From Minisyncoccia bacterium (GTDB lineage Bacteria; Patescibacteriota; Minisyncoccia; UBA6257; 2-01-FULL-56-20), in the NCBI GenBank assembly GCA_050015515.1, contig JBEKBG010000007.1, positions 1-41,805 on the forward strand: a stretch of 41,805 nucleotides of DNA, given 5' to 3'. A program made the position numbers and the translations under genes. Under the pieces are notes generated by a model, which saw only the letters and a program-made list of their open reading frames with translations, was not told the DNA's origin and searched no databases. How positions within the stretch are numbered: the first letter of the stretch is position 1; each line of letters begins with the position of its first letter. Positions 3,592 through 39,552 of this stretch are shown here, in pieces.

Positions 3592-3743
3592 CTCTCGCGC
3601 CAGCATCGTATTCTGCGAGGGGCTCCGCAGGCGGTTCGGCATGGTCCGTTCGTTCTGACGAACGGCGAACCGCCGAGGACTGAGCGAGCCCATCGCTGGG
3701 TGGGCGAAGCGTACCCTCGCAGAATACGATGCTGGCGCGAGAG
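3592..3743. repeat. Fold-back element: perfect 30-bp inverted arms around a 92-nt branched core (GGGTAC family)
   Basis: 3592-3621 is the exact reverse complement of 3714-3743; interior has GCTC/GAGC, ccgttcgt/acgaacgg and gcccatc/ggtgggc stems. Confidence 0.9.
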
Positions 3744-3746
3744 CCT

Positions 3747-5804
3747 CTATATCTTCTGCAACGTCAGCGTGAACATCAGTCGCCCGGGCGTGCTGGTGGA
3801 ATTGTACGTAAAGCTCGCAAGACCGTTCTCGGCGAACGCATAGCCGAGCGGCGCATCCACTTCGATGTGATAATTCCCCGTCGCGCCGCTCGGGCGTTCG
3901 AAAATAAATTGATATTGCACACCGGCGGCGGGCAGCGCGAATAAGTTGCGCGAGTAATCGAACGAGAGCGTGGATGACTGGCCCGCATACGTTCGCGACC
4001 ACACGGCAAACACCTGCTTACCCGATTCCGTATGCGTCGTTACTTTTGGATAACTGAAATTTTGCTGCGTCGCTGAAGCGATGGCGAGCACGTTCGGGTC
4101 GGTGCTATAGCCGTCGCGCGCATAGTTGATCGGCGCAGGGACGCTCTTCGCGATTCCGCCACTCTGGTTCTGCAACGTGCTCCCGTTCGGCACAAAGATC
4201 TGCATATAATCCTGGTTGGTCGTTTGATACCACCAGTATGGACTTTGGTTGCCGTTATGCGTGCGCGTGATGGTGAGGTTTGTGGTCAGCGTGCCGTCGC
4301 TCCCGATCGCAGCGTCGTAGCTAATATCCTGCACCATATACAGCTCCGACTTATCGCTGTTGATATCCGCGTTCACGATCGCAAGATAATCACCGTTGAA
4401 GTTTTGCGGGAGCTGATAGACATCGCCCGTCGCGCCGTACGCGTTGGCGAACGTCTCAAACGCAGGGTTGGTCGCATAAAACATTAAATCTTTATTGGAA
4501 ATCCAGTTGAGTGCGAGCCCAAGTATCTGTTGTTTCTGCGCATCCGTGGAAGACGCAAGTTGTTGGATGATCGCGGGGTAGAGCTGCGACAACACCGCCT
4601 TCGGATACGTAGCATTGCCTCCACCGGACTTTGCCTGGCCTGCCTGCACGATCTTTTGGATCTGCGTCACGAGATTGTCGGAAGTGAATGTCGTTGATGC
4701 GACGTTAATCGGTCCCGTCACCGAGAGCAGATCGCTCATCACCTGCGGCGTCACCGCGACAACGCCATCGAATGTGGTGGATGGCGTGGCCGCTTCAAAC
4801 ATACTGATCGTCTCCGACGCGGACGTCGGGAAGTCAAAGAACCAGTTCGCATCAGCGGGGCGGAACGCGATCTCTTCCAACTGCAGCGGCACGGGCGGTT
4901 CGATCTTTTGTTTGAACGCCGTGTCCACATCCGCAACATCATGAAACGCGATGTTAGAGATCTTCCCGTTGTTGATAGAGACATCCGCATAGCTTCCCAA
5001 AAATCCCCCGCCCGGACGCATCTCCGACGGATTTTGGAAAAGCACAAGGAGGTGGTGTGTGGTTGACGCATCGGAGAGCCATGGCACAAACGCATCCAAA
5101 AAAGTTTCCGCGCCCTTTATCTGCGTGGTCAGTGCCAGATAGCTTTCCCCGCTGATCGGCGACGCGGTGCCCAATGACGATGCCGCGCCGGAGAGCGCGC
5201 CGCTGTCCGCGTCGATCGCGGTAAGCGTGTCGCGCACACTCGCAAGGTCTGCAGCGAGCGTGCTGCTCCCATTCCCGGAAACAAATCCGAACGCATCATT
5301 TTCAATGCTCGTTATATTGTTTGAAAGTGTTGTTAGTTGATTGGAGAGATCGGTGAATGACCGGATCGTGGCGCTGCTTCCCGCGAAAAAAGAGACAAGA
5401 GATCCCCAAGGCCCATCCGCCGCCGACGAGGCGTTCAATGATGAGAATTCTTGCGCGGCGGACTGTGGATTCAAGTTCTGCAGATCCTGCACACCCGCTT
5501 GCAACGTACCGATCCGTGATGAGATCGTCGCCGCAATCTCGCGCTTCACCAAATAATATGAAACCGCAAAGCCGCCAATAAAAAGCACGATCAGCCCGGC
5601 AGCGGCCCACTTGATGCCGCGCGGGAGCGGTTGCCGACGATCCTCGCCACGAAACCGCCAATAATTGCTGTTCGTCACCGGAATGTCGCGCAAGTGGTCG
5701 GTGTTTTCCTTCACCTCGCGCTGGGTGATCTTTACTAGCTCGTCCGCACGGATATCATCCGCCGCATGCTCCGACTGCAGTTTTTTCTCCTCGCGATCAG
5801 CCAT
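3747..5804 (-). CDS. DUF4012 domain-containing membrane-anchored protein
   Basis: Single N-terminal TM; LLVLFQNPSEMRPGGGFLGSY, DANWFFDFPTSA and DGVVAVTP motifs typical of DUF4012. Confidence 0.85.
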   Translation of the reverse strand: MADREEKKLQSEHAADDIRADELVKITQREVKENTDHLRDIPVTNSNYWRFRGEDRRQPLPRGIKWAAAGLIVLFIGGFAVSYYLVKREIAATISSRIGTLQAGVQDLQNLNPQSAAQEFSSLNASSAADGPWGSLVSFFAGSSATIRSFTDLSNQLTTLSNNITSIENDAFGFVSGNGSSTLAADLASVRDTLTAIDADSGALSGAASSLGTASPISGESYLALTTQIKGAETFLDAFVPWLSDASTTHHLLVLFQNPSEMRPGGGFLGSYADVSINNGKISNIAFHDVADVDTAFKQKIEPPVPLQLEEIAFRPADANWFFDFPTSASETISMFEAATPSTTFDGVVAVTPQVMSDLLSVTGPINVASTTFTSDNLVTQIQKIVQAGQAKSGGGNATYPKAVLSQLYPAIIQQLASSTDAQKQQILGLALNWISNKDLMFYATNPAFETFANAYGATGDVYQLPQNFNGDYLAIVNADINSDKSELYMVQDISYDAAIGSDGTLTTNLTITRTHNGNQSPYWWYQTTNQDYMQIFVPNGSTLQNQSGGIAKSVPAPINYARDGYSTDPNVLAIASATQQNFSYPKVTTHTESGKQVFAVWSRTYAGQSSTLSFDYSRNLFALPAAGVQYQFIFERPSGATGNYHIEVDAPLGYAFAENGLASFTYNSTSTPGRLMFTLTLQKI

Positions 5805-5846: not shown

Positions 5847-7841
5847 ATGATAAAAAAACTCACTTCCTGGTTCACTGCTACCGCCCTCGTACTGATCTGC
5901 ATCACTTCATTCGGCCTGATGTTCTACGCGTCGCGCACTGATTCCGCGATCATGGACGAGCTCGCACACATCCCCGCCGGCTACGGTTACGTGAGCCAAC
6001 TCGATTACCGGTTGAACCCCGAGCATCCCCCGCTCGTGAAAGCGCTCGCGATGCTGCCGGTGCTGATATTCGTGCAGCCAACATTCCCCACAAACAACGC
6101 GGCGTGGACAACGGAAGTGAACGGGCAGTGGGATATGGGCACCGCGTTCCTCTATAATTCGGGCAACGACGCGAATGCGATCATCCAGGTGGGGCGCGTG
6201 ATGCCGATCCTGCTCACCATCCTCACCATCATTCTCGTCTACTTTCTCGCGCGGCGGTTTGTGGGAAAACTTTGGGCGCTTCTGCCGACATTCCTCTTTG
6301 CGCTCGACCCGACCGTGCTCGGGCACGGGCATTATGTGACGACCGACCTCGGCGCTGCGTTCGGCGTCATTCTCGCCATATTTTTCTTTTTGAGATATAT
6401 CAATGATCCGTCCACGAAAAATTTGTGGTACGCCGGGCTCGCGTTCGGCGTGGCGCAGGTCGCCAAATTCTCAACGCCCTTACTCGTCCCGCTCTTTATC
6501 TTTCTCTTTATCGTTTTATGGCTGCGCGACCTCATCGCGCAATGGAGCACGACCGATGCGTCACGCCGCGCAAAAACGTTTTTTGCAAAGCTGTGCCGCT
6601 CCGCGTGGAAGTGCGCGCTCATCTTTGTGATCGGCTACGCGTTCATCGTCTATCCGATCTATTTCTTATTCACCGCCGGCTATCCGGTCCAAAGGCAGGT
6701 TTCTGACACGACCGCGATCCTCACTTCGTTTGCTACTGGCCCCACACCAGCCGACCAACTATGCCACGGCATGCGATGCATCGCCGACGCGGATATCTGG
6801 ATGGCAGGACATCGCCTTACGCAACCGATCGCGGAGTACTCGCTCGGCATCCTAATGGTGTTGCAACGCGCGGACGGTGGCAACACGATCTACTTCCTCG
6901 GCCACGTAGCGCAAAGCGGCGGCTGGATCTACTTCCCCGCGCTCTTCCTTTTGAAAGAACCGATCCCGACGCTCATCATCGTCTTCCTCGCACTCGCGCT
7001 CGCCGCGTGGTGGACCATTAAAAAAACATTAAAACGCAGATCCACCGGCGGGTCGACGATTGGACGGCGGATACTCGATTACCTCACGCTCAATTTCGGC
7101 GAATTCTCGCTCGCGTCGTTCATCGTCCTCTATTGGGGGTACAGCATGCACAGTCCGTTGAACATCGGCATCCGGCATATCCTACCCACCCTCCCGCTCA
7201 TCTTCATCCTTGCCGCCGTCGTGTGGAAAAAATGGATCACAAAATTAAATTTCGGTGCGATGGCGTCCTCAAGCTCTTTCGCCGCGCTCGCACGATCATT
7301 CCTTTCTCCCGTCATCAAATATATTTTTCTCATCTTGCTCCTCGCATGGTTGCTTCTCGAGACATTCTTCGCCGCGCCGTACTTCCTCTCGTACTTCAAT
7401 GAGTTCGGCGGTGGCGTCCAGGGCGGCTATCACTTCGTGACCGATTCCAATTACGACTGGGGACAGGACTTACTCCGGCTGCAATCGTGGGTGAACGCCA
7501 ACCCGCAGGTGGATAAGATCGCAGTGGATTATTTCGGCGGCGGCGATCCGCACTATTATCTCGGCAATAAAGAAGTGAATTGGTCATCAGCGCAAGGCAA
7601 TCCCGCCGACCAGGGTATTCACTGGCTTGCCGTTTCCGTAAACACGCTCGAGCTCGCCACCCAGCCGCTCGCGCCCGGCCAGACGCGCAACGCGTCGGAC
7701 ACCTACTCGTGGCTCACCGCGCTGCGCGCTTCCAGTTCGGGCGCCGACGCGACCGGTACCTGGCTCGGCGGCGATATGGGCAACGTCCCCACCCCGGACG
7801 CGCGCGCAGGAACATCGATCTTCATCTATCATCTGCAATAA
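5847..7841 (+). CDS. GT-C fold membrane glycosyltransferase (PMT/ArnT, GT39/83-like)
   Basis: DE motif (IMDELAH), NPEHPPLVK, many TM segments, DSNYDWGQD; start re-called at ATG 5847 after TGnTATACT. Confidence 0.85.
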   Translation: MIKKLTSWFTATALVLICITSFGLMFYASRTDSAIMDELAHIPAGYGYVSQLDYRLNPEHPPLVKALAMLPVLIFVQPTFPTNNAAWTTEVNGQWDMGTAFLYNSGNDANAIIQVGRVMPILLTILTIILVYFLARRFVGKLWALLPTFLFALDPTVLGHGHYVTTDLGAAFGVILAIFFFLRYINDPSTKNLWYAGLAFGVAQVAKFSTPLLVPLFIFLFIVLWLRDLIAQWSTTDASRRAKTFFAKLCRSAWKCALIFVIGYAFIVYPIYFLFTAGYPVQRQVSDTTAILTSFATGPTPADQLCHGMRCIADADIWMAGHRLTQPIAEYSLGILMVLQRADGGNTIYFLGHVAQSGGWIYFPALFLLKEPIPTLIIVFLALALAAWWTIKKTLKRRSTGGSTIGRRILDYLTLNFGEFSLASFIVLYWGYSMHSPLNIGIRHILPTLPLIFILAAVVWKKWITKLNFGAMASSSSFAALARSFLSPVIKYIFLILLLAWLLLETFFAAPYFLSYFNEFGGGVQGGYHFVTDSNYDWGQDLLRLQSWVNANPQVDKIAVDYFGGGDPHYYLGNKEVNWSSAQGNPADQGIHWLAVSVNTLELATQPLAPGQTRNASDTYSWLTALRASSSGADATGTWLGGDMGNVPTPDARAGTSIFIYHLQ

Positions 7842-7856
7842 GTTCCCCTACGACAT

Positions 7857-7888
7857 AGGCGGCACCCTCACGTGTCGCCTTTCTTTTT
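7857..7888 (+). terminator. Intrinsic terminator of the glycosyltransferase gene
   Basis: aggcggcac-loop-gtgtcgcct followed by ttcttttt. Confidence 0.7.
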
Positions 7889-7901
7889 ATCTTTTATCAC
7901 G

Positions 7902-8026
7902 TAGCAAAAACACAAAGGGATATTATTTTGAGGGCTCTCGGAGACGACGAAGGTCGCCGAGAGGGAGCGGCCGCGCAGCAGCGCGGAACGCGTACCTCAA
8001 GATAATATCCCTTTGTGTTTTTGCTA
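7902..8026. repeat. Fold-back element: 32-bp inverted arms (1 mismatch) around a branched core (GGGTAC family)
   Basis: 7902-7933 vs 7995-8026; right arm includes the ftsQ stop codon; core gctc...gagc, ccgcgc/gcgcgg, GCGTA. Confidence 0.9.
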
Positions 8027-8869
8027 TTTATAGAACAATCGGTTCTCCGTCCGGCAATCAACGTACTGCAGTTTATCAAAATTAGATTGCAACATCAGCT
8101 TCTGGATGACCGGCAAATATTCGTCCGCCGGGAATTGCAGACTGAAGTAGATCGTCGGCCCGTTCGCCGTTTGCACATCCACTTCCTGGAGCGAGAGATC
8201 GTTCAGCTCAATGGCCTGCACGCTGAGGCCGCTCGCGTGCAAGACGTTCATGATGGAAATAAAATTCGGGAGGAACTCGTCCGACAGCACTTTTTGATTC
8301 AGCCCGCGCGGCGCTTGCGCACGATCATATACCGTGTAGACCAGATCGCCCTGCGTCTCCCCGGCCTTTTCAAAGATCGTGCCGGTGTTATCGAACCAGT
8401 AGCAGGGTGCGTTCGTATCCGTCGCAGTGGTCGAAGCCGCGCTTACACCCGGCGATGCGGAAAAACACCAGATGCCGAACGGTGAACGTTCGGTGACGGT
8501 GATAGTGATGGTATGCGAAAAAAAATCTTTGGAGATATTCGCGTTCGCGAGCTGCGGGATCATCTGAAGTTCGCCCTGCGGGATGCTCGCCGGCCACAGC
8601 AGCATATTATCGAACGTGAGTGCGGCGCGGAGAATGTCATGGCTGGGAAACGCGCTTGCCTCCGCGAGCGCGATCACATCCGTGTTTGAGATCGCACTAT
8701 TCCCCTGCACCACCACGTGGTCCACACGGAATACCGGCGAACGAAGCACTAGCCATTGCGCGGCAAAAAATATCCCGTAAAAAATTACCAACCCGAGCGC
8801 GGTTAAAAGATACGCGCGGCGGCGCTTGCGCTTTCTCTTATGGTCGGAAATATACGGCGCGATCTGCAT
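8024..8869 (-). CDS. ftsQ: Cell division protein FtsQ/DivIB
   Basis: Basic N-terminus, one TM, POTRA-like SPVFRVDHVVVQGN...ITITVTER, C-terminal YVDCRTENRLFYK. Confidence 0.8.
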   Translation of the reverse strand: MQIAPYISDHKRKRKRRRAYLLTALGLVIFYGIFFAAQWLVLRSPVFRVDHVVVQGNSAISNTDVIALAEASAFPSHDILRAALTFDNMLLWPASIPQGELQMIPQLANANISKDFFSHTITITVTERSPFGIWCFSASPGVSAASTTATDTNAPCYWFDNTGTIFEKAGETQGDLVYTVYDRAQAPRGLNQKVLSDEFLPNFISIMNVLHASGLSVQAIELNDLSLQEVDVQTANGPTIYFSLQFPADEYLPVIQKLMLQSNFDKLQYVDCRTENRLFYK

Positions 8870-8886
8870 GAATCAATGATACCACT

Positions 8887-8966
8887 CCGCGAAAAGGAAG
8901 GAGGATGCGCCTTCGCAGCATGGAAGATTAAATGCTGCGAAAGCGTATCCTCCTTCCTTTTCGCGG
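8887..8966. repeat. Long hairpin: 35-bp arms (2 mismatches), loop GGAAGATTAA
   Basis: 8887-8921 vs 8932-8966, just downstream of the serS stop. Confidence 0.9.
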
Positions 8967-18157: not shown

Positions 18158-18197
18158 AGTAAATAAAAAGACCCGATAGTGGGTCTTTTTATTTACT
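18158..18197 (-). terminator. Terminator hairpin after rpsF
   Basis: agtaaataaaaagaccc-gatagt-gggtctttttatttact, overlapping the rpsF stop. Confidence 0.75.
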
Positions 18198-25614: not shown

Positions 25615-26628
25615 TTAATTGCTTTCTAAGTATTTAACTCTATTTTGGTTCTGTTCGTCAAGGGTCTTGGCGAATATTGTTTTTCCCGTCGCGGGATCGC
25701 TCAAATAGTAAAAGTAGGGGGAGTTTTGGGGATGGAGCGCAGCGGTAATGGCGGAAGTGCCTGGGTTGCCGATGGGATCTGGTGGCAAACCCTTATACAG
25801 GTAGGTATTGTAGGGCGAATCAATCTTGAAGTCAAGCGCCGAGAGAGAGCAGACCTGGGCAGTTGAGGTGGACGCCGCCAATAGCTTGGCGTAACAGACC
25901 GTCGCGTCGATGTCCAGAGGCATCCCGTCGGCCAGGCGCTTAAGGATGATTCCAGCGACGACCTCCTGATCCTGTTGGTCCGGCACCTCTTTTTCTACGA
26001 TCGAGGCAATGATAAGGGTGCTCGTCTCGTCCGTAAAGGTTGACGTGTTCCCCGCCGGGGCGGCGACAAAGAGCGGACCGGCCTTTGCATTAAAATCACT
26101 CGTCATTTCCTGGATCACGTCTTCCACGCTGTCGTTCGTATAAAACTGATAGGTGTCGGGAAATAGATGCCCTTCCAAATTTTGCGTCCTTGCGGCGGCG
26201 ATGAGCGCGCCGGGGCGAATCACGAGCGCGTTGCTCAGCATTCGATCGATGTTGAAAATGTTCGACCCCTCCGGGATAGTGACCGTCGCCTTCCCTGCTC
26301 TGCTGCCGGAAAGCATCGCCACGATCTGCGCCACATCCATCGACGGGCTTAACCGGTACAATCCCGGCTTGAGCGTAAACGCGCGACCATCCACCAGGGA
26401 AAAAATATCGAACGCGAACGGGCTACGAATAAGATGTGCGGCACGCAAATTCTGTGCGACCTCGCGAAAGCCATCGCCGGGGTTAACCTGGAATACGATC
26501 GGCGGTGTGGCGGCACTCCCCGCTGCGACATCCACCGGATCAAGACTGAAGAAAAACCACCCCGCCACGATAATGACGAGCGCAATAACTATTCCTACGA
26601 TAATATTTTTTTTCGTTAATATCCTCAC
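25615..26628 (-). CDS. mltG: Endolytic transglycosylase MltG
   Basis: N-terminal TM, TIPEG, LEGHLFPDTY, ASIVEKE, SPYNTY..GLPP.PI.NPG. Confidence 0.93.
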   Translation of the reverse strand: MRILTKKNIIVGIVIALVIIVAGWFFFSLDPVDVAAGSAATPPIVFQVNPGDGFREVAQNLRAAHLIRSPFAFDIFSLVDGRAFTLKPGLYRLSPSMDVAQIVAMLSGSRAGKATVTIPEGSNIFNIDRMLSNALVIRPGALIAAARTQNLEGHLFPDTYQFYTNDSVEDVIQEMTSDFNAKAGPLFVAAPAGNTSTFTDETSTLIIASIVEKEVPDQQDQEVVAGIILKRLADGMPLDIDATVCYAKLLAASTSTAQVCSLSALDFKIDSPYNTYLYKGLPPDPIGNPGTSAITAALHPQNSPYFYYLSDPATGKTIFAKTLDEQNQNRVKYLESN

Positions 26629-26685
26629 TTCTTTTTTCTACTCTTTTCTTTTTCCTCTTTTCTTTTAATCTCTCCATTATTGATG

Positions 26686-26769
26686 TCCGCAAGCGCTCAT
26701 AGCCGCATACTTTTTGGAGCAATTAATCTTCCTTGCTCCAAAAAGTATGCGGCTATGAGCGCTTGCGGA
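26686..26769. repeat. Long hairpin: perfect 37-bp arms, loop GGAAGATTAA (minus strand)
   Basis: 26686-26722 is the reverse complement of 26733-26769; right arm covers the last codons and stop of rodA. Confidence 0.92.
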
Positions 26770-27799
26770 TGGAATTAACAAGGGAGAGCGTAAAGAAATT
26801 TGCGAGCATACTCGATCCGCCGTAGCTAAAGAATGGGAACGTAACCCCAATGACCGGCATAAGGCCGGTAGTGGAGCCGGTGTTCAAGAGAAATTGCACG
26901 CCGAGCATGATCGCCGCGCCGAGACAGATGAACTTCTCAAAATTTTCATCGGCCAACAGCCCGATTCGCAAAATCTGGAAAATAAGGAACAAGAACGCCG
27001 CCACGATCACGATACCTCCAACAACGCCCCATTCCTCGATGAACGCGGCGAAGATAAAATCTTCCGACGGTTCGGAGAGGAACCCGAGCTGAGCCTGCGT
27101 CCCCTGACCATATCCCTGCCCCCAAAATCCCGCGGAGCCGATGGCGATCTTTGATTGTATCGCACTGTAATTGATGCCGAGCGCGTTCTGATCGGGATAT
27201 AAAAACCCGACGATGCGGGCGCGATGATACGGCTTCAGCACATATGTCCAGATCAGTCCGCCGGCGAGCAGAATAACGGCGATCGCAACGACGACGCGGC
27301 GCCACGGCAACCCAAGTAACAATAAAAATCCGAACCAGATGCCGAAGAAGATCACCGCGGAGCCGAGATCCGGAAGCTTTACCGAGATCGCCGCAGGGAG
27401 AACAAAGAATATAAAAGAGGTAAAAATGTTCTTCCAGCGCGCGATCGCCATATGCCGCCGGCTGAAATAGTTGGCGTAAAGCAAAATGAGCGCGACCTTC
27501 ATAAGCTCCACCGGCTGGAGGCTGAACGGTCCGAGCACCAGCCAACTGTGCGTGTTGCGCACGAGCGGCGACGCAAGCAGCGCAAGCACCATGAGCGCGA
27601 GCGCAAGCCCGTATAATCCCCAGATCACCCACTGCGAATTGAATATCGTGCGAACATCCACAAAGAACGAACCGACCACGAGCGCGATGCCAAGAACGAT
27701 CCATATTATTTGGAAGACAAAAAAATGAAACGAGATCGCCGAGAGAATGACCAAGCTCGCAGCGAGTAAAATTCCGACCGGGATGAATAATGCCAACAT
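26753..27799 (-). CDS. rodA: SEDS family peptidoglycan polymerase (RodA/FtsW)
   Basis: LQPVELMK, PDLGSA, QSKIAIGSAG..GQG, DFIFA..EEWG, G.TFPFFSYGGSS. Confidence 0.88.
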   Translation of the reverse strand: MLALFIPVGILLAASLVILSAISFHFFVFQIIWIVLGIALVVGSFFVDVRTIFNSQWVIWGLYGLALALMVLALLASPLVRNTHSWLVLGPFSLQPVELMKVALILLYANYFSRRHMAIARWKNIFTSFIFFVLPAAISVKLPDLGSAVIFFGIWFGFLLLLGLPWRRVVVAIAVILLAGGLIWTYVLKPYHRARIVGFLYPDQNALGINYSAIQSKIAIGSAGFWGQGYGQGTQAQLGFLSEPSEDFIFAAFIEEWGVVGGIVIVAAFLFLIFQILRIGLLADENFEKFICLGAAIMLGVQFLLNTGSTTGLMPVIGVTFPFFSYGGSSMLANFFTLSLVNSIRKRS

Positions 27800-29205: not shown

Positions 29206-29270
29206 GCATGTGGGTGAGTGTTCTAAAAAACTAGAAGATTAATAGTTTTTTAGAACACTCACCCACATGC
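29206..29270. repeat. Long hairpin: perfect 28-bp arms, loop GAAGATTAA
   Basis: 29206-29233 vs 29243-29270 in the 23S-5S spacer. Confidence 0.92.
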
Positions 29271-29316
29271 TCACCGCCTAGTGATTAATTGATTCTTTAT
29301 TGTAGATAAAGAATGA

Positions 29317-29383
29317 GATAGTGCGCTGCATGCTTTTGAAAACTATTAATCTGCTAGTTTTCAAAAGCATGCAGCGCACTATC
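29317..29383. repeat. Long hairpin: perfect 29-bp arms, loop GCAGATTAA (minus strand)
   Basis: 29317-29345 vs 29355-29383 in the 23S-5S spacer. Confidence 0.92.
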
Positions 29384-29515
29384 GAATGCAAGTCAGCATT
29401 GGGATGGTTGGCGGGATTATTAGTACGTCTTGGCTAAAAACATTGCTGTCCTTACACCGAACGCCTATCAACGTCATAGTCTATGACGAAATCACGCATA
29501 CCTAATCTTGGGGTG

Positions 29516-29548
<33 letters not shown>

Positions 29549-29690
29549 CTTCCATACATAGCTACCCGGCAATTCACTTGGTAGCAAAGCCGGTAGACCA
29601 GAGGTATGTTCAACCCAGTCCTCTCGTACTAAGGTCAACTCCCCTCAAGTATTAAACGCCTGCAGCAGATAGAGACCGACCTGTCTCACG

Positions 29691-30045
29691 CAACTTCTTT
29701 TTCATCGCCATTACTGGCGGGTTGGACTATACCACCATCTCAATTGAGATGATCGACGTGTTAGCCCGGCATGATTGCCGGACTCCAGTTCTTTCGAACC
29801 AAGTCTCTAAGGGGTCAATGCACAAAAATAAATTTTGCGCACGACTTCCCTCGGTATTATCCTCACGGTCCAGGTCTAGACCACATAAGGACTTCACCGA
29901 TATGAGTCGATTTTCACGCTTTACGATTCGTCGGACGAATGACGAACTTTAATGCAAAGCTTCACTCCTTGGTATCGCTACCAAGGGCCGCCGTTTCTTC
30001 TTTTAACAGTTTCTTTCGTTACCTTCGATTGGGTTATCTACGTTG
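29691..30045 (-). ncRNA. Group I intron at 23S position 2593 (E. coli numbering), no ORF, 355 nt
   Basis: Interrupts GACCGU|CGUGAGA; exon ends in U, intron ends in G; core-like cttagagact and gtatagtcc. Confidence 0.9.
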
Positions 30046-30716
30046 ACGGTCTGAACCCAGCTCACGTGCCACTTTAATTGGCGAACAGCCAAACGCTTGG
30101 GAGCTTCTACACCCCCGCGCTGTGGCGAGCCGACATCGAGGTGCCGAGCATTGTCGTCGCTAGGGACGCTCGGACAATACTAGCCTGTTATCCCCGGAGT
30201 AGCTTTTATCCGGTGTCTCCGGCCTTTCTATGAAGGGCCGTCGGGTCACTAACTTCTGCTTTCGCACCTGCTCGTCTTGTAGGACTCGCAGTCAAGCCAG
30301 CTTTTGCGTTTGCACGTCCTGCCCGATTTCCATCCGGGCTAAGCTGACCTTAATAAACTCCTCCGTTACTCTTTTGGAGGAAAACGCCCCATTTAAACTG
30401 CCTACCAAGCACTGTCTTCGCATGGCTTCCCCGAAGGGTTCCATACGAGTTAGACGTTAAAGTTTTAAAAATGGCTGTTTCATTGTCGGATCCACGTCAC
30501 CCGAAAGCGACGCTTCAAATCCTCACCACTACGCTACGTAGTAAAACTCTAAAATCAATACCAAGCTGCAGTAAAGCTTCCGGGGTCTTTTCGTCCCGCT
30601 GCAGGTATCCCGCGTCTTCACGGGAATCGCATTTTCACCGAGCTCATCGTTGAGACAGTTCTCCGGTCGTTACACCTTTCGTGCGCTTCGGAACTTACCC
30701 GAAAAGGAATTGCGCT

Positions 30717-31166
30717 CAAACATGTTACAACACTTTTTGTTGGCCAAAACATTTCTGCTTGGCTCTCTATGTCGCCATAGAGTTCGGACTATATCTTATC
30801 GCCTTGCGACGATCCTAACGTGTAGTCTCTGAGGATCCTTCGCGCATCGAGTAATGGGTGGGAATGGGATCCGAAGATCCCATTCCCATGGGAGATAACA
30901 CAACTTTGCTGTGTCAATACATTCCGGATGAGCCGAAGCTCAAAATATCCTCTTGCGGGATACCGAATGGCGTTGAACCAAAAGATTCGCGGCGTCACGG
31001 TCCCGCATCGGGAAATGTCGGACTTTGACCTTATGTTTTCGCCCATTATTCGATGCACCAAGTTTCCTGCTGATTGTCCGCATCGATCAAAGATTGTTAC
31101 CTTGCGGTACTTTGATATGCGCGGGTATTCCAGCATATAGTTAGGTTTTACTAAGGCAATGCAATC
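30717..31166 (-). ncRNA. Group I intron at 23S position 1931, 450 nt
   Basis: Interrupts CUAAGGU|AGCG; 5' gccttag guide pairs with the exon; aatcagcagg, ctcagagactac, aagatatagtcc; terminal G. Confidence 0.92.
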
Positions 31167-31180
31167 ACCTTAGAACGATT

Positions 31181-31922
31181 CTTTCACGTTATCACCCGCT
31201 CGTTTTTTAATTTAAGCGGGATCCTCATGGTCGCCCATGAGATCGGACTATATCATCTCTAAAATGTTTTAGAGTCTGGCGTATAGTCTCTGAGGATTCC
31301 TTGATAGTCTATTTCACGTCGTTCCAGTTATATTTACGCCTTCTTCCCCTGCCCTCATTTAAATTTTCTCTGATAGCGACAATTTCTTGAAGTCCTTTTG
31401 GATCAAGATGCTTCCCTTGCTCCATTAAAAATGCAATTTGTCTAAACAGAGAAAAGTTTTTCTGTTTTGATAAGGAAAAGAAAGAAAACTTTTCAAAAAA
31501 CGGTATGACGCGATCAATGATCGAACGATAATCGCCAACAACGAAGTAATGCACTCCGTCCTTTCGATATTGCAATCGTCCGCAACCTAAATGACTTTTT
31601 AATAATTCCAAATTGGCGATGTCGCGCTGGGCCACGTTGAAGGTCATTTGCACCTGCCATCCGAGGCGGTGCCCATTCCCTTTTCGAAGAGAGACGTTAA
31701 AACTTCCCTCTCCATCTGTGAAACCAGAAAGATACCAGCCAACGTTGTCTGGAATTTTCTCAAGCCATTCACGGTTATACCAAGGCCTTTCCTGCTGATT
31801 GTCTGCACCGATCATATTGTCACTATACTCAATCAAGATTAAATCTTTATTAAATATAGTAATGTCGGATACCCAGAGTTTCCAGCATTTGGCCAGATTT
31901 TATAACTACAATCGTTATGTTT
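31181..31922 (-). mobile_element. Group I intron at 23S position 1917 carrying a homing endonuclease, 742 nt
   Basis: Interrupts AACUAU|AAUCG; core aatcagcagg, ctcagagactata, gatatagtcc; terminal G. Confidence 0.92.
31309..31836 (-). CDS. Single-motif LAGLIDADG homing endonuclease
   Basis: WYLSGFTDGEGSF, F.VAQ, LGCG, IPFFEK..K..NF..F motifs; lies inside the L1917 intron. Confidence 0.95.
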   Translation of the reverse strand: MIEYSDNMIGADNQQERPWYNREWLEKIPDNVGWYLSGFTDGEGSFNVSLRKGNGHRLGWQVQMTFNVAQRDIANLELLKSHLGCGRLQYRKDGVHYFVVGDYRSIIDRVIPFFEKFSFFSLSKQKNFSLFRQIAFLMEQGKHLDPKGLQEIVAIRENLNEGRGRRRKYNWNDVK

Positions 31923-33341
31923 ATAGTTATCGCTGACATTGACGAGGGCTTGACTCAGTGAGCAGTACAGATTGCTCCATACCACCCCCAAGCTTGACCT
32001 TCTCGCATCGGTCAGGTGTCACCCCCTATACATCCTGTTGCCAGTTAGCAGGGAGCTGTGTTTTTGGTAAACAGTCGCCAGAGATTCTTTAGCTGCGGCC
32101 CTACTTGCCCCGGCTTACGCCGGACTTCATAGGGCAGGCCTTATTGCTAACTTACGGCCGCTATTTTGCCTAGTTCCTTAACGATGAATCACTCGTTCCC
32201 CTTGGGCTACTCGCCCTATCCACCAGTGTCGGTTTACGGTACGGAGACCCTCGAAAGGCACTTCACAGATGTCGGCCAAGTAAATTCTTAACCTTCTCTC
32301 GGTACACGCTTGCGCTCAGTACAAAGAATGCCAAACCAATAAGGCACATCTGCTTATCTCCTTTGTCCTCTGGTTATGATCGTACGGTCGGGCTGGAATA
32401 TTAACCAGCTTCCCATCGACTGCCCCTTTCGGGATCGCCTTAGGACCGCCTCACCCGTGGTTGATTGCCAGTGCCACGGAAACCTTGGATTTTCGGGGTT
32501 CCAATTTCTCATTGGGATTGTGGTTACTCATTCCAACATTTTCTCTTCCGGCCGCTCCAGTCGCCCTCGCGGGTCGACCTTCTCTGCAGGCCGAAATGCT
32601 CTCCTACCACTTACACCTCCCGAAGGAAGTATAAATTCGTATCTTCGGTACCATGCTTAGCCCCGGTACATTTTCGGCGCCGCGACCCGTCGAATAGTGA
32701 GTTGTTACACACTCTTTAAAGGATGGCTACCTCTAAGCCAACCTCCTATCTGTCTATGGGTTACGACTACCTTTCACACTTAGCATGGATTTAGGGACCT
32801 TAGATGACGATCTGGGCTCTTCCCCTCGCGACCACGGAGCTTAGCCCCCGCAGTCTAACTAGCAAGATCTTGACTCTCGGTATTCGGAGTTTGATTGATC
32901 GTTCGGTCTTTCGACCTGTAACGATCATCCAGTGCTCTACCCCCAAGAGGAACTCTTGCCGCCAGTCCTAAAACTGTTTCGGAGAGAACCAGCTATTACG
33001 TTATTCGATTAGCTTTTCACTCCTTACCTCAGCTCATCCGAAGATTTTGAACAATCAACCGGTTCGGGCCTCCCTCCCGATTTCTCGGGAGTTCACCCTG
33101 GCCAAGGCAAGCTCATAACGCTTCGGGTCTATCTTCTGCTGCATATATGTCGCCCTATTCAGACTCGCTTTCGCTATGCCTACACGCTATGCGCGCTTAG
33201 ACTGCAACAAAAAATAAGTCGTTGGATCATTCTTCAATAGGCACACTGTTACACTCGAACTCCCTTGCGGGAGATCGTTCGTGCTTCAGTTCCTTGTAGG
33301 CAAACGGTTTCAGGTTCTATTTCAACGGCCTCACCGGCCTG

Positions 33342-33378
<37 letters not shown>

Positions 33379-33951
33379 ATCTAGAAAAGTATTTAGCCTT
33401 ACCTGATAGTACAGGTATATTCCTCCGGAACTGTTTTACTCCGAAGTACTCGAGTTAAAAAACTAAGGAGACCAATTGTTTTCGTCTAGGGGGCTATCAC
33501 CCGCTCTGGCGCCGCTTTCCAGACGGCTTTGACTAACAAAAGATTTTTTTACTCCTCCACCTCTTAATGAGTAACGAAACACACACTTGCGTATGTGCTA
33601 CGTTACTTATTAAAAGAGCGTCTTTAGACTATACCCTAAGGTCGCAATATAAATCACAACCTTAGTTTGGGCTGTTCCCTGTTCTCTCGCCGATACTAGG
33701 GGAATAACTGATTTGTTCTTTTTTCCTCCGCTTACTGGAATGTTTTACTTCAGCGGGTACGCGAATCGACTTGCGTCGAAACAATTGAGGTTTACTCAAC
33801 TAGGTTTCCCCATTCGGAAATCCCCGGATCATAGATTGCTACGCATCTCCCCGAGGCATATCGTTGCTACGCCACGTCCTTCATCGCCTTTTCTAGTCTA
33901 GGCATCCACCGTTCGCCCTTATTTGCCAACCATCCCAATGCTGACTTGCTC

Positions 33952-34032
33952 GTGATGTGCACGAATTAGTTTTTTTGACGGAAATGCCAGGTAGGAACCT
34001 GACCGTCAAAAAAATTAATTCGCGCACATCAC
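33952..34032. repeat. Fold-back element: 25-bp arms around the conserved 31-nt core
   Basis: Arms 33952-33976/34008-34032 (2 mismatches); core gacggaaatgccaggtaggaacctgaccgtc. Confidence 0.9.
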
Positions 34033-39439: not shown

Positions 39440-39552
39440 AGCTTATCCAACATGCCCCGAAAGGGTACTTCGGAGCCGCGCAGGCGGCGAGAACTAAGGC
39501 GCGCGTTCAGTAGAACGCGACGCCGTCCCTTTCGGGGCATGTTGGATAAGCT
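39440..39552. repeat. Fold-back element: perfect 26-bp arms around a branched core (GGGTAC family)
   Basis: 39440-39465 vs 39527-39552, abutting the tRNA 3' end; core starts GGG|TAC then the gccgc/gcggc hairpin. Confidence 0.88.

Follow-up and report, generated by a model that had tools for sequence, protein, structure and literature searches.

The last codons of rodA form part of one arm of a perfect 37-bp hairpin in an uncultured Minisyncoccia bacterium, and comparison with relatives indicates that this coding tail is ancestral and that the distal arm was copied from it. The window analysed is a stretch of 41,805 nucleotides (GenBank assembly GCA_050015515.1, contig JBEKBG010000007.1, positions 1 to 41,805 of the forward strand). 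Similar hairpins are common in the genome of this tiny bacterium. At rodA one arm contains the closing codons of the gene and the opposite arm their reverse copy, and copying of neighbouring DNA can thus be recognised as one way in which such hairpins grow. Our preferred reading, to which a probability of about 70% is assigned, is that a small conserved palindromic core has had its stem extended, and subsequently kept perfect, by templating at the DNA level. The rodA locus is a natural before-and-after case: empty site, native coding tail and filled site are all available, and the direction of copying can be read directly.

The arms of the rodA hairpin are 100% complementary and enclose a loop of 10 nt (Table 1). 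The stop codon of the gene is at 26753-26755 (CTA, corresponding to TAG on the minus strand), residues S, R, K and R are encoded by 26756-26767, and 26768-26769 are two nucleotides of an Ile codon. The presence of this 17-nt stretch, coding end plus stop, in a perfect 37-bp stem had been noticed in a preliminary description of the window, and agrees with the coordinates of both the arms and the ORF. The loop recurs in other hairpins of the same genome, and window positions 26712-26743 are 97% identical over 32 nt to a sequence in contig 33 of a related genome (G013:C33), where they reside at a different locus. Between the tail copy and the conserved core, the distal arm features the 8 nt CCGCATAC (26703-26710), which the templating model leaves unaccounted for and which count against it. 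As judged by sequence comparison, local derivation of the rodA arm is demonstrable for the outer 17 nt only.

Table 1. Features of the rodA hairpin, its neighbours and other hairpin loci in the window.
Feature	Position	Strand	Remarks
rodA (FtsW/RodA/SpoVE family), CDS including stop	26753..27799	-	348-aa ORF, ends ...VNSIRKRS*; PF01098, E 5.6e-77
Proximal (gene-side) hairpin arm	26733..26769	.	outer 17 nt (26753-26769), native rodA tail and stop
Loop, family-1	26723..26732	-	TTAATCTTCC on the plus strand, GGAAGATTAA in rodA sense
Distal hairpin arm	26686..26722	.	26686-26702, inverted copy of rodA tail; 26711-26722, conserved inner stem
Conserved family-1 core	26711..26744	.	12-bp inner stem TTTTTGGAGCAA plus 10-nt loop
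57-nt spacer, hairpin to mltG start	26629..26685	-	purine-rich in gene sense; GAGG just before GTG
mltG/YceG-like gene, downstream of hairpin	25615..26628	-	ORF; PF02618, E 2.9e-72
Family-1 hairpin	8887..8966	.	35-bp stem, 2 mismatches; site empty in G005 and G014
Hairpin with 61-nt GC-rich core	7902..8026	.	just before old stop of gene 8024..8869; non-local arms
Two family-1-like hairpins (29206-29270 and 29317-29383)	29206..29383	.	between 5S and 23S rRNA genes
Family-2 hairpin, 21-nt loop	34990..35070	.	directly 3' of tRNA-Pro
Second family-2-like hairpin	33952-34032		abutting 5' side of 23S rRNA

The purine-rich spacer separating the hairpin from mltG is missing from the empty sites of relatives, finds a similar, 35-nt counterpart in G013, and probably restores a ribosome-binding site for mltG. 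The flanks were inspected, and neither a direct repeat nor a target duplication was seen around the hairpin. Presence in the spacer of a longer, decayed inverted copy of rodA was considered and discarded: 20 of 26 positions align nearly in register, but 143 of 2000 shuffled spacers score equally, and G013 shows nothing. Within the window, the rodA arm matches only itself and its partner, and two matches were not reached in any of 100 shuffles; the repeat is not a product of chance. The predicted RNA fold of the hairpin measures -86.6 kcal/mol (z = -15.5).

RodA sequences were searched in 40 relatives. Matches were obtained in 41 of 41 genomes, counting the genome of the window (G000), and the 30 best loci were read for the C-terminus and the downstream DNA. 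The end IRKRS* (the asterisk denotes the stop) is found at 13 of the 30 orthologous rodA loci, 11 of which are hairpin-less and have the mltG start approximately 0-45 nt from the rodA stop. Elsewhere in the genus, RodA C-termini read IRKQS, IRKKS, IRKRLA or the like. In hairpin-less G003, the last 21 nt of rodA are identical to those of the window. Since the tail is found in 11 hairpin-less orthologues, and G003 is identical over 21 nt, the rodA tail predates the hairpin, and 26686-26702 is its inverted copy. The RodA protein is unchanged by the hairpin, and the copy falls outside of the gene. Local templating of the distal arm was the inference of the preliminary description, which proposed alignment of RodA C-termini and downstream DNA from relatives as a check; in this comparison the tail is conserved where the hairpin is absent, and the inference is supported. 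A pattern in which orthologues end earlier, and RKRS accompanies the element only, was not seen among the 30 loci, none of which features the core with an unextended stem.

One other genome of the 30, G013, has a hairpin behind rodA. Loop and orientation are the same (GGAAGATTAA in gene sense), and no inversion of the loop distinguishes the two genomes at this site; the stem, perfect, measures 33 bp. The arm carries G013's own variant of the rodA tail, which differs from that of the window at three synonymous sites (in the codons of K, R and S). In the alignment of the two hairpins, 10 of the 33 pairs have changed at both positions, the three synonymous sites and one transversion among them; one-sided differences are absent, and every pair is intact. 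The boundary of the stem inside rodA is the same within 1 nt, the inner parts differ by 3 nt in length, and the core variant GCAA..TTGC is common to both. From the shared boundary, the purine-rich spacers and the core variant, a single origin is favoured. In the tree of the locus, G000 branches with G006, G014 and G003, and G013 with G001 and G005 (support 96-100%); all five others are empty at the site. As G000 and G013 are not sisters, a single origin needs either a transfer or repeated, exact loss, and an independent origin in each needs a match of the boundary within 1 nt; this pattern weighs against the templating model. In every scenario (one gain plus losses, transfer, two gains) the distal arm is templated from the local tail. 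Recombination between G000 and G013, or hitch-hiking around the hairpin, was also considered and rejected: no local affinity is visible in sliding-window identity plots.

Hairpins mark the whole genome of the bacterium (774 kb in 23 contigs, 98% complete). Perfect hairpins with stems of at least 18 bp are 83. Those with stems of at least 20 bp are 97, 67 of them perfect, and most reside at gene 3' ends. When the threshold is set to perfect stems of at least 14 bp, 113 are observed in G000 and none in three block-shuffled genomes. The arms are locus-specific, as 70 of the 97, including that of rodA, find no other match in the genome (blastn-short). A source of the arms elsewhere in the genome was sought and set aside, the remaining matches being mostly 14-16 nt long, near the E-value cut-off, and taken as chance; the main exception is the pair of hairpins C7:29317 and C9:17452, which have 20 nt in common. 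Loops, in turn, group into few conserved families: TTAATCTTCC, 21-nt loops, 18-19-nt loops, 30-32-nt loops, and GC-rich loops of 56-73 nt. The family-1 core GCATTTAATCTTCCATGC (18 nt, up to 2 mismatches) is found 13 times in G000, three times in G009, twice in G013, and never in the 20 remaining genomes of the genus. The 21-nt loop is present in G014, which belongs to the same genus, and in none of 400 other genomes sampled across the phylum. About 100 hairpins with conserved loops are located at gene ends in G000, and likewise in G014, the genome of which is complete.

Short-read assemblers and MDA can make inverted chimeras, and the de Bruijn unitigs break inside this repeat. The notion that the palindrome is an artefact of assembly or amplification, in the form of a chimeric fold-back, is nevertheless scarcely credible. 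Unitigs of three runs (X1, X2, X3) tile both arms and the loop with no differences, one piece of 70 nt bridging the loop. X1 is possibly the source run; X2 and X3 come from other samples and provide independent support. A homologous hairpin is found in the assembly of a separate species (G013), and conserved loops are shared by the approximately 100 hairpins at gene ends in G000 and in the complete genome G014. The assembled contigs of 4 runs, which drop rare variants and in which an inverted-loop form might fall under the likeness cut-off, gave no sign of joints, indels or variant letters at the rodA hairpin.

Overlaps of gene ends with hairpin arms are 53, in 51 hairpins, on the basis of our own, crude gene calls. 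Arms overlapping the gene end by at least 8 nt are 24, and 23 of these genes have a homologue in G014. In 14 of the 23 the two genes end at the same position (in 11 of these 14 the residues encoded by the arm are also identical), and in 9 the ends differ. The arm at C5:32887 is identical, over its outer 11 nt, to the gene tail found at the empty site of G014. Capture of gene tails by hairpin arms appears to be general in this genome.

Insertion at rodA of a ready-made 84-nt palindrome (MITE, REP or RPE-like), an arm of which replaced the end of the gene and gave RodA a new C-terminus, is very improbable. It is at odds with the IRKRS* tail of the 11 hairpin-less orthologues and the 21 nt identical in G003, with the lack of further copies of the rodA arm in window and genome, and with the synonymous tail variants proper of G013 that the G013 arm bears. 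Events of this kind do take place at other sites. The hairpin at 7902-8026 supplies a new stop (TAG) to the neighbouring gene; at C10:1206-1270 the ORF runs 36 nt into the hairpin and acquires a new tail of 14 residues, not found in G014, where the orthologue ends in GGA*; and the 9 gene ends that differ from G014 point the same way. The idea, put forward in the preliminary description as an alternative, that the element supplies a new C-terminus is consequently dismissed for rodA and retained for loci such as 7902-8026 and C10:1206. For the hairpins at 7902-8026 and 8887-8966, arm sequence occurs neither at the empty sites of relatives nor anywhere else in the genome. Copying of the neighbouring flank is therefore insufficient to account for every arm, which counts against the templating model. 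Both routes, local templating and imported arm, occur in this genome, and rodA is a clear case of local templating.

The region corresponding to 7841-8024, where the 7902-8026 hairpin is located, is found in three states: empty in G005, G003 and G006, occupied by the hairpin in G000, and by an insert of 95-177 nt in G013, G001 and G014. The insert hosts a small ORF of approximately 26 codons beginning with MDFF. Hairpins reside also next to genes for stable RNAs. In addition to those listed in Table 1, a conserved-loop hairpin (39440-39552) is located 3' of tRNA-Met. The hairpin sites flanking rRNA genes hold other cores in G014. The match to 23S rRNA (29403-33932, minus strand) spans 4530 nt for a 2925-nt model, and thus hosts insertions for approximately 1.6 kb. 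The segment 18688-25422 (minus strand) is a single ORF of 2244 aa, apparently an RpoB-RpoC fusion, given motifs that we take to belong to both proteins. At C12:3524-3604 two convergent genes share one palindrome; according to our own gene calls, AGTAG forms the last 5 nt of both ORFs, one at each end of the stem, and the stop region of one gene mirrors that of the other. The G006 stretches C3:1770-2400 and C1:482150-482790 have the same hairpin and, where compared, the same 60-nt flanks on each side, which suggests a region either duplicated or assembled twice.

Several loci could be compared among species. An older family-1 hairpin, located behind a gene ending in ...VAVKF*, is common to G000, G013, G005, G006 and G014. 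Fifteen of its 32 pairs show changes at both sides, transversions included, and 2 show changes at one side. At other sites, as C9:17452, C7:33952 and C7:29317, the outer arm is orthologous and the core belongs to a different family. The hairpins at C2:77754 and G014:2683 differ in the orientation of the loop, 27 of 30 nt being identical after reverse complementing; a RecA-type inversion would give the same product.

The composition of mismatches bears on the level at which stems are kept perfect. The set of 97 hairpins (stems of at least 20 bp) comprises 2965 pairs, 52 of which are mismatched (G.T 23, A.C 21, A.G 5, G.G 2, C.T 1). Selection for RNA pairing should tolerate G.U and remove A.C pairs, and the similar number of G.T and A.C mismatches therefore suggests recent, unfiltered transitions. 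Wobble pairs are not favoured in the stems.

We consider it unlikely that ordinary compensatory point mutations, under selection on RNA structure (terminator, RNase III site, or mRNA stabiliser), maintain the stem, and that its overlap with the rodA tail reflects selection for a longer helix. The location of hairpins at gene 3' ends fits this explanation, as do the many other hairpins whose outer stems, made by an A-tract, a GC-rich segment and a T-tract, resemble bidirectional terminators; perfect stems of 37-43 bp are, however, far beyond the needs of a terminator, and no T-run follows the rodA hairpin. The ordinary bidirectional terminator at 18158-18197 (17-bp stem, A-tract paired to T-tract) is instructive in this respect. 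It is conserved in 4 of 5 relatives, in contrast to the long conserved-loop hairpins has stems of 15-19 bp, and does show mismatches (0-1) in relatives. Compensatory evolution is also hard to reconcile with the G000-G013 comparison, in which two-sided changes, one transversion included, are 10 and one-sided changes 0 out of 33 pairs, and with the finding that G.T mismatches are no commoner than A.C. A hint at the RNA level comes from loops, the orientation of which tracks the upstream gene in about 22 of 25 family-1 and family-2 cases (our own count). In G014 the three cases in which gene and replication directions are discordant follow the gene, a weak indication, the cases being three only. 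As it is tied to the upstream gene, loop orientation points to some constraint linked to transcription or acting on the RNA, and would not be expected from DNA templating alone. Any role of the rodA hairpin as RNA is conjectural; at most, it is likely to be a structured segment of the mRNA that separates rodA from mltG.

According to the templating model, the family-1 core, made by the 12-bp inner stem and the loop GGAAGATTAA, would come to lie immediately after the rodA stop. In the course of replication or repair, newly made DNA would fold back at the core, and the folded strand would copy the sequence 5' of the core (rodA stop and last 14 coding nt) as reverse complement onto the far side, generating the distal arm. 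Like events would later keep the arms identical, as a change in one arm may be either erased or copied to the other. Selection on the RodA tail at the protein level would let survive only outward copying of the tail, or synonymous changes. The core would thus come first, and the extension later. To judge from the products, template switching at replication is the most likely copying route, and the copying enzyme would be a replicative or repair polymerase engaged in an intrastrand template switch.

Genes relevant to these processes were searched in G000 by profiles (Y1_Tnp, TnpB, RVT_1 and Exonuc_VII_L for enzymes, MutS_V, DNA_mis_repair and SbcD_C for repair). Matches to MutS_V (PF00488), to the MutL family DNA_mis_repair (PF01119) and to SbcD_C (PF12320) were not found in G000, in favour of the templating model. 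ExoVII restrains template-switch-type events in E. coli. The large subunit of this enzyme (PF02601) is encoded in G000, which counts against the templating model.

A dedicated enzyme, either an unknown transposase, recombinase or nuclease, or a snap-back reverse transcriptase, could insert the core along with an inverted duplication of the target flank. Such an activity is rather unlikely. It would account for the amplification of the family-1 core (13 copies in G000, none in 20 of the genus's 22 other genomes), for lineage-specific insertions and for oriented loops; a single insertion leaves unexplained how arms remain perfect as orthologues drift apart, and the rodA hairpin is not flanked by a direct target duplication. 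Neither Y1 transposases (PF01797) nor TnpB domains (PF07282) gave matches in G000, 98% complete. One reverse transcriptase gene (RVT_1, PF00078) is present in the genome, inside a DGR featuring one template repeat and two variable repeats. It was evaluated as a hairpin maker and rejected, as the only RVT_1 gene belongs to this standard DGR. The DGR is located at G000:C1:87000-97000 (locus L106), outside of the window, with the reverse transcriptase ORF at 3655..4671 and the template repeat at 3130-3274 of L106; the variable repeats, with 83-86% identity to the template, occupy 2685-2829 and 5233-5377, at the 3' ends of two ORFs.

Template switching may also be at work between loci. It is conceivable, as a speculative extension of the templating model, that loop modules are protein-independent selfish DNA, that is, palindrome tips that spread by ectopic template switching via shared inner stems, both among existing hairpins and to new sites behind stops, and that would then nucleate self-extending perfect palindromes that swallow gene ends. 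Three observations hint at this. Different cores are found at the same site, next to the same outer arm, in G000 and G014. The five-species hairpin has the G000-typical core GCAT/ATGC in G000, and keeps GCAA/TTGC in the four relatives. The family-1 core, as noted, has 13 copies in G000, and 20 of the 22 other members of the genus lack it. If this were true, in a lineage devoid of mismatch repair or SbcD the process would make, renew and exchange most terminators of the genome.

The rodA locus shows that a perfect 37-bp hairpin can arise from a gene's own end and leave the protein unchanged, and that such stems remain perfect while they diverge between species. Templating as the origin of RNA-type structures has been argued from rRNA histories (PMC8794818), and the rodA locus supports the DNA-level process as a source of such structures. 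The data suggest a possible way for ultra-small genomes that lack mismatch repair to produce terminator-like hairpins and to replace them with new ones. They also call for caution on two points. Covariation in such stems is no evidence of RNA function. In these genomes, moreover, palindromes can rewrite gene 3' ends, as new C-termini arise at loci other than rodA.

Known families of repeats resemble the rodA hairpin in part. REPs conserve the whole palindrome, arms included. Like REP/BIME/REPIN elements, mobilised by RAYT transposases (PMC3733652), the hairpins described here are many short extragenic palindromes, placed downstream of genes, which may influence termination or mRNA stability. 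They differ from REPs in that conservation concerns the tip, each locus having arms of its own, no Y1/RAYT gene (PF01797) is found, and the arms show neither a GTAG nor a CGTC head. Rickettsia palindromic elements, and hairpin repeats of sponge mitochondria (PMC2800124), are similarly palindromic repeats which overlap or enter coding sequence, and in Nematomorpha mitochondria both arms of perfect inverted repeats are reported within genes (PMC6649704). Unlike these, the rodA arm holds only the last 14 coding nt and the stop, and no RPE-like in-frame insertion is observed. Likeness to MITEs is contradicted by conservation of the centre rather than of the termini, and by the absence of direct repeats flanking the rodA hairpin.

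Integron attC sites have conserved boxes at the base of an imperfect stem, and extrahelical bases. The rodA stem is perfect and its conservation is at the tip, and assignment to attC is likewise not supported. Bidirectional intrinsic terminators share with the rodA hairpin the position after a stop, and with many sister hairpins the A-tract/GC-rich/T-tract organisation of the outer stems. The rodA hairpin itself does not conform to an intrinsic (Rho-independent) terminator: in gene sense the stem is followed by CATCAATAATGG, with no U-tract, and a terminator scan yielded no site at the hairpin, which sits between genes that abut or overlap in relatives. In searches of the whole window against Rfam, only rRNA and tRNA matches were obtained at gathering thresholds, and only generic, sub-threshold microRNA-hairpin matches in E-value mode. 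A full-text literature search retrieved no description, in the text portions available, of conserved-loop perfect palindromes in Patescibacteria or Parcubacteria.

Template-switch mutations are the known system closest to the one described here. Template switching at inverted repeats yields arm homogenisation, arm expansion and spacer inversion (PMC8604942, PMC13100816, PMC5941160, PMC8794818). The behaviour of the hairpins agrees with such mutations. The arm at rodA is the reverse complement of pre-existing adjacent sequence, and coding sequence served as template for a new arm. Compensated multi-base differences, which include transversions and show no wobble bias, are found in the G000-G013 comparison, at the five-species locus and genome-wide. 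Loop inversion between species, compatible also with a RecA-type event, is observed at another locus (C2:77754) and not at rodA. The cited works deal with scattered short inverted repeats or rRNA stems, not with a family of core-nucleated palindromes. What is unusual in the present case is scale and organisation: a genome of 0.77 Mb hosts approximately 100 sites, nearly all of them at gene 3' ends, with stems that reach 37-43 perfect bp and are built around few conserved, oriented, multi-copy loop modules that are confined to the genus in the genomes searched.
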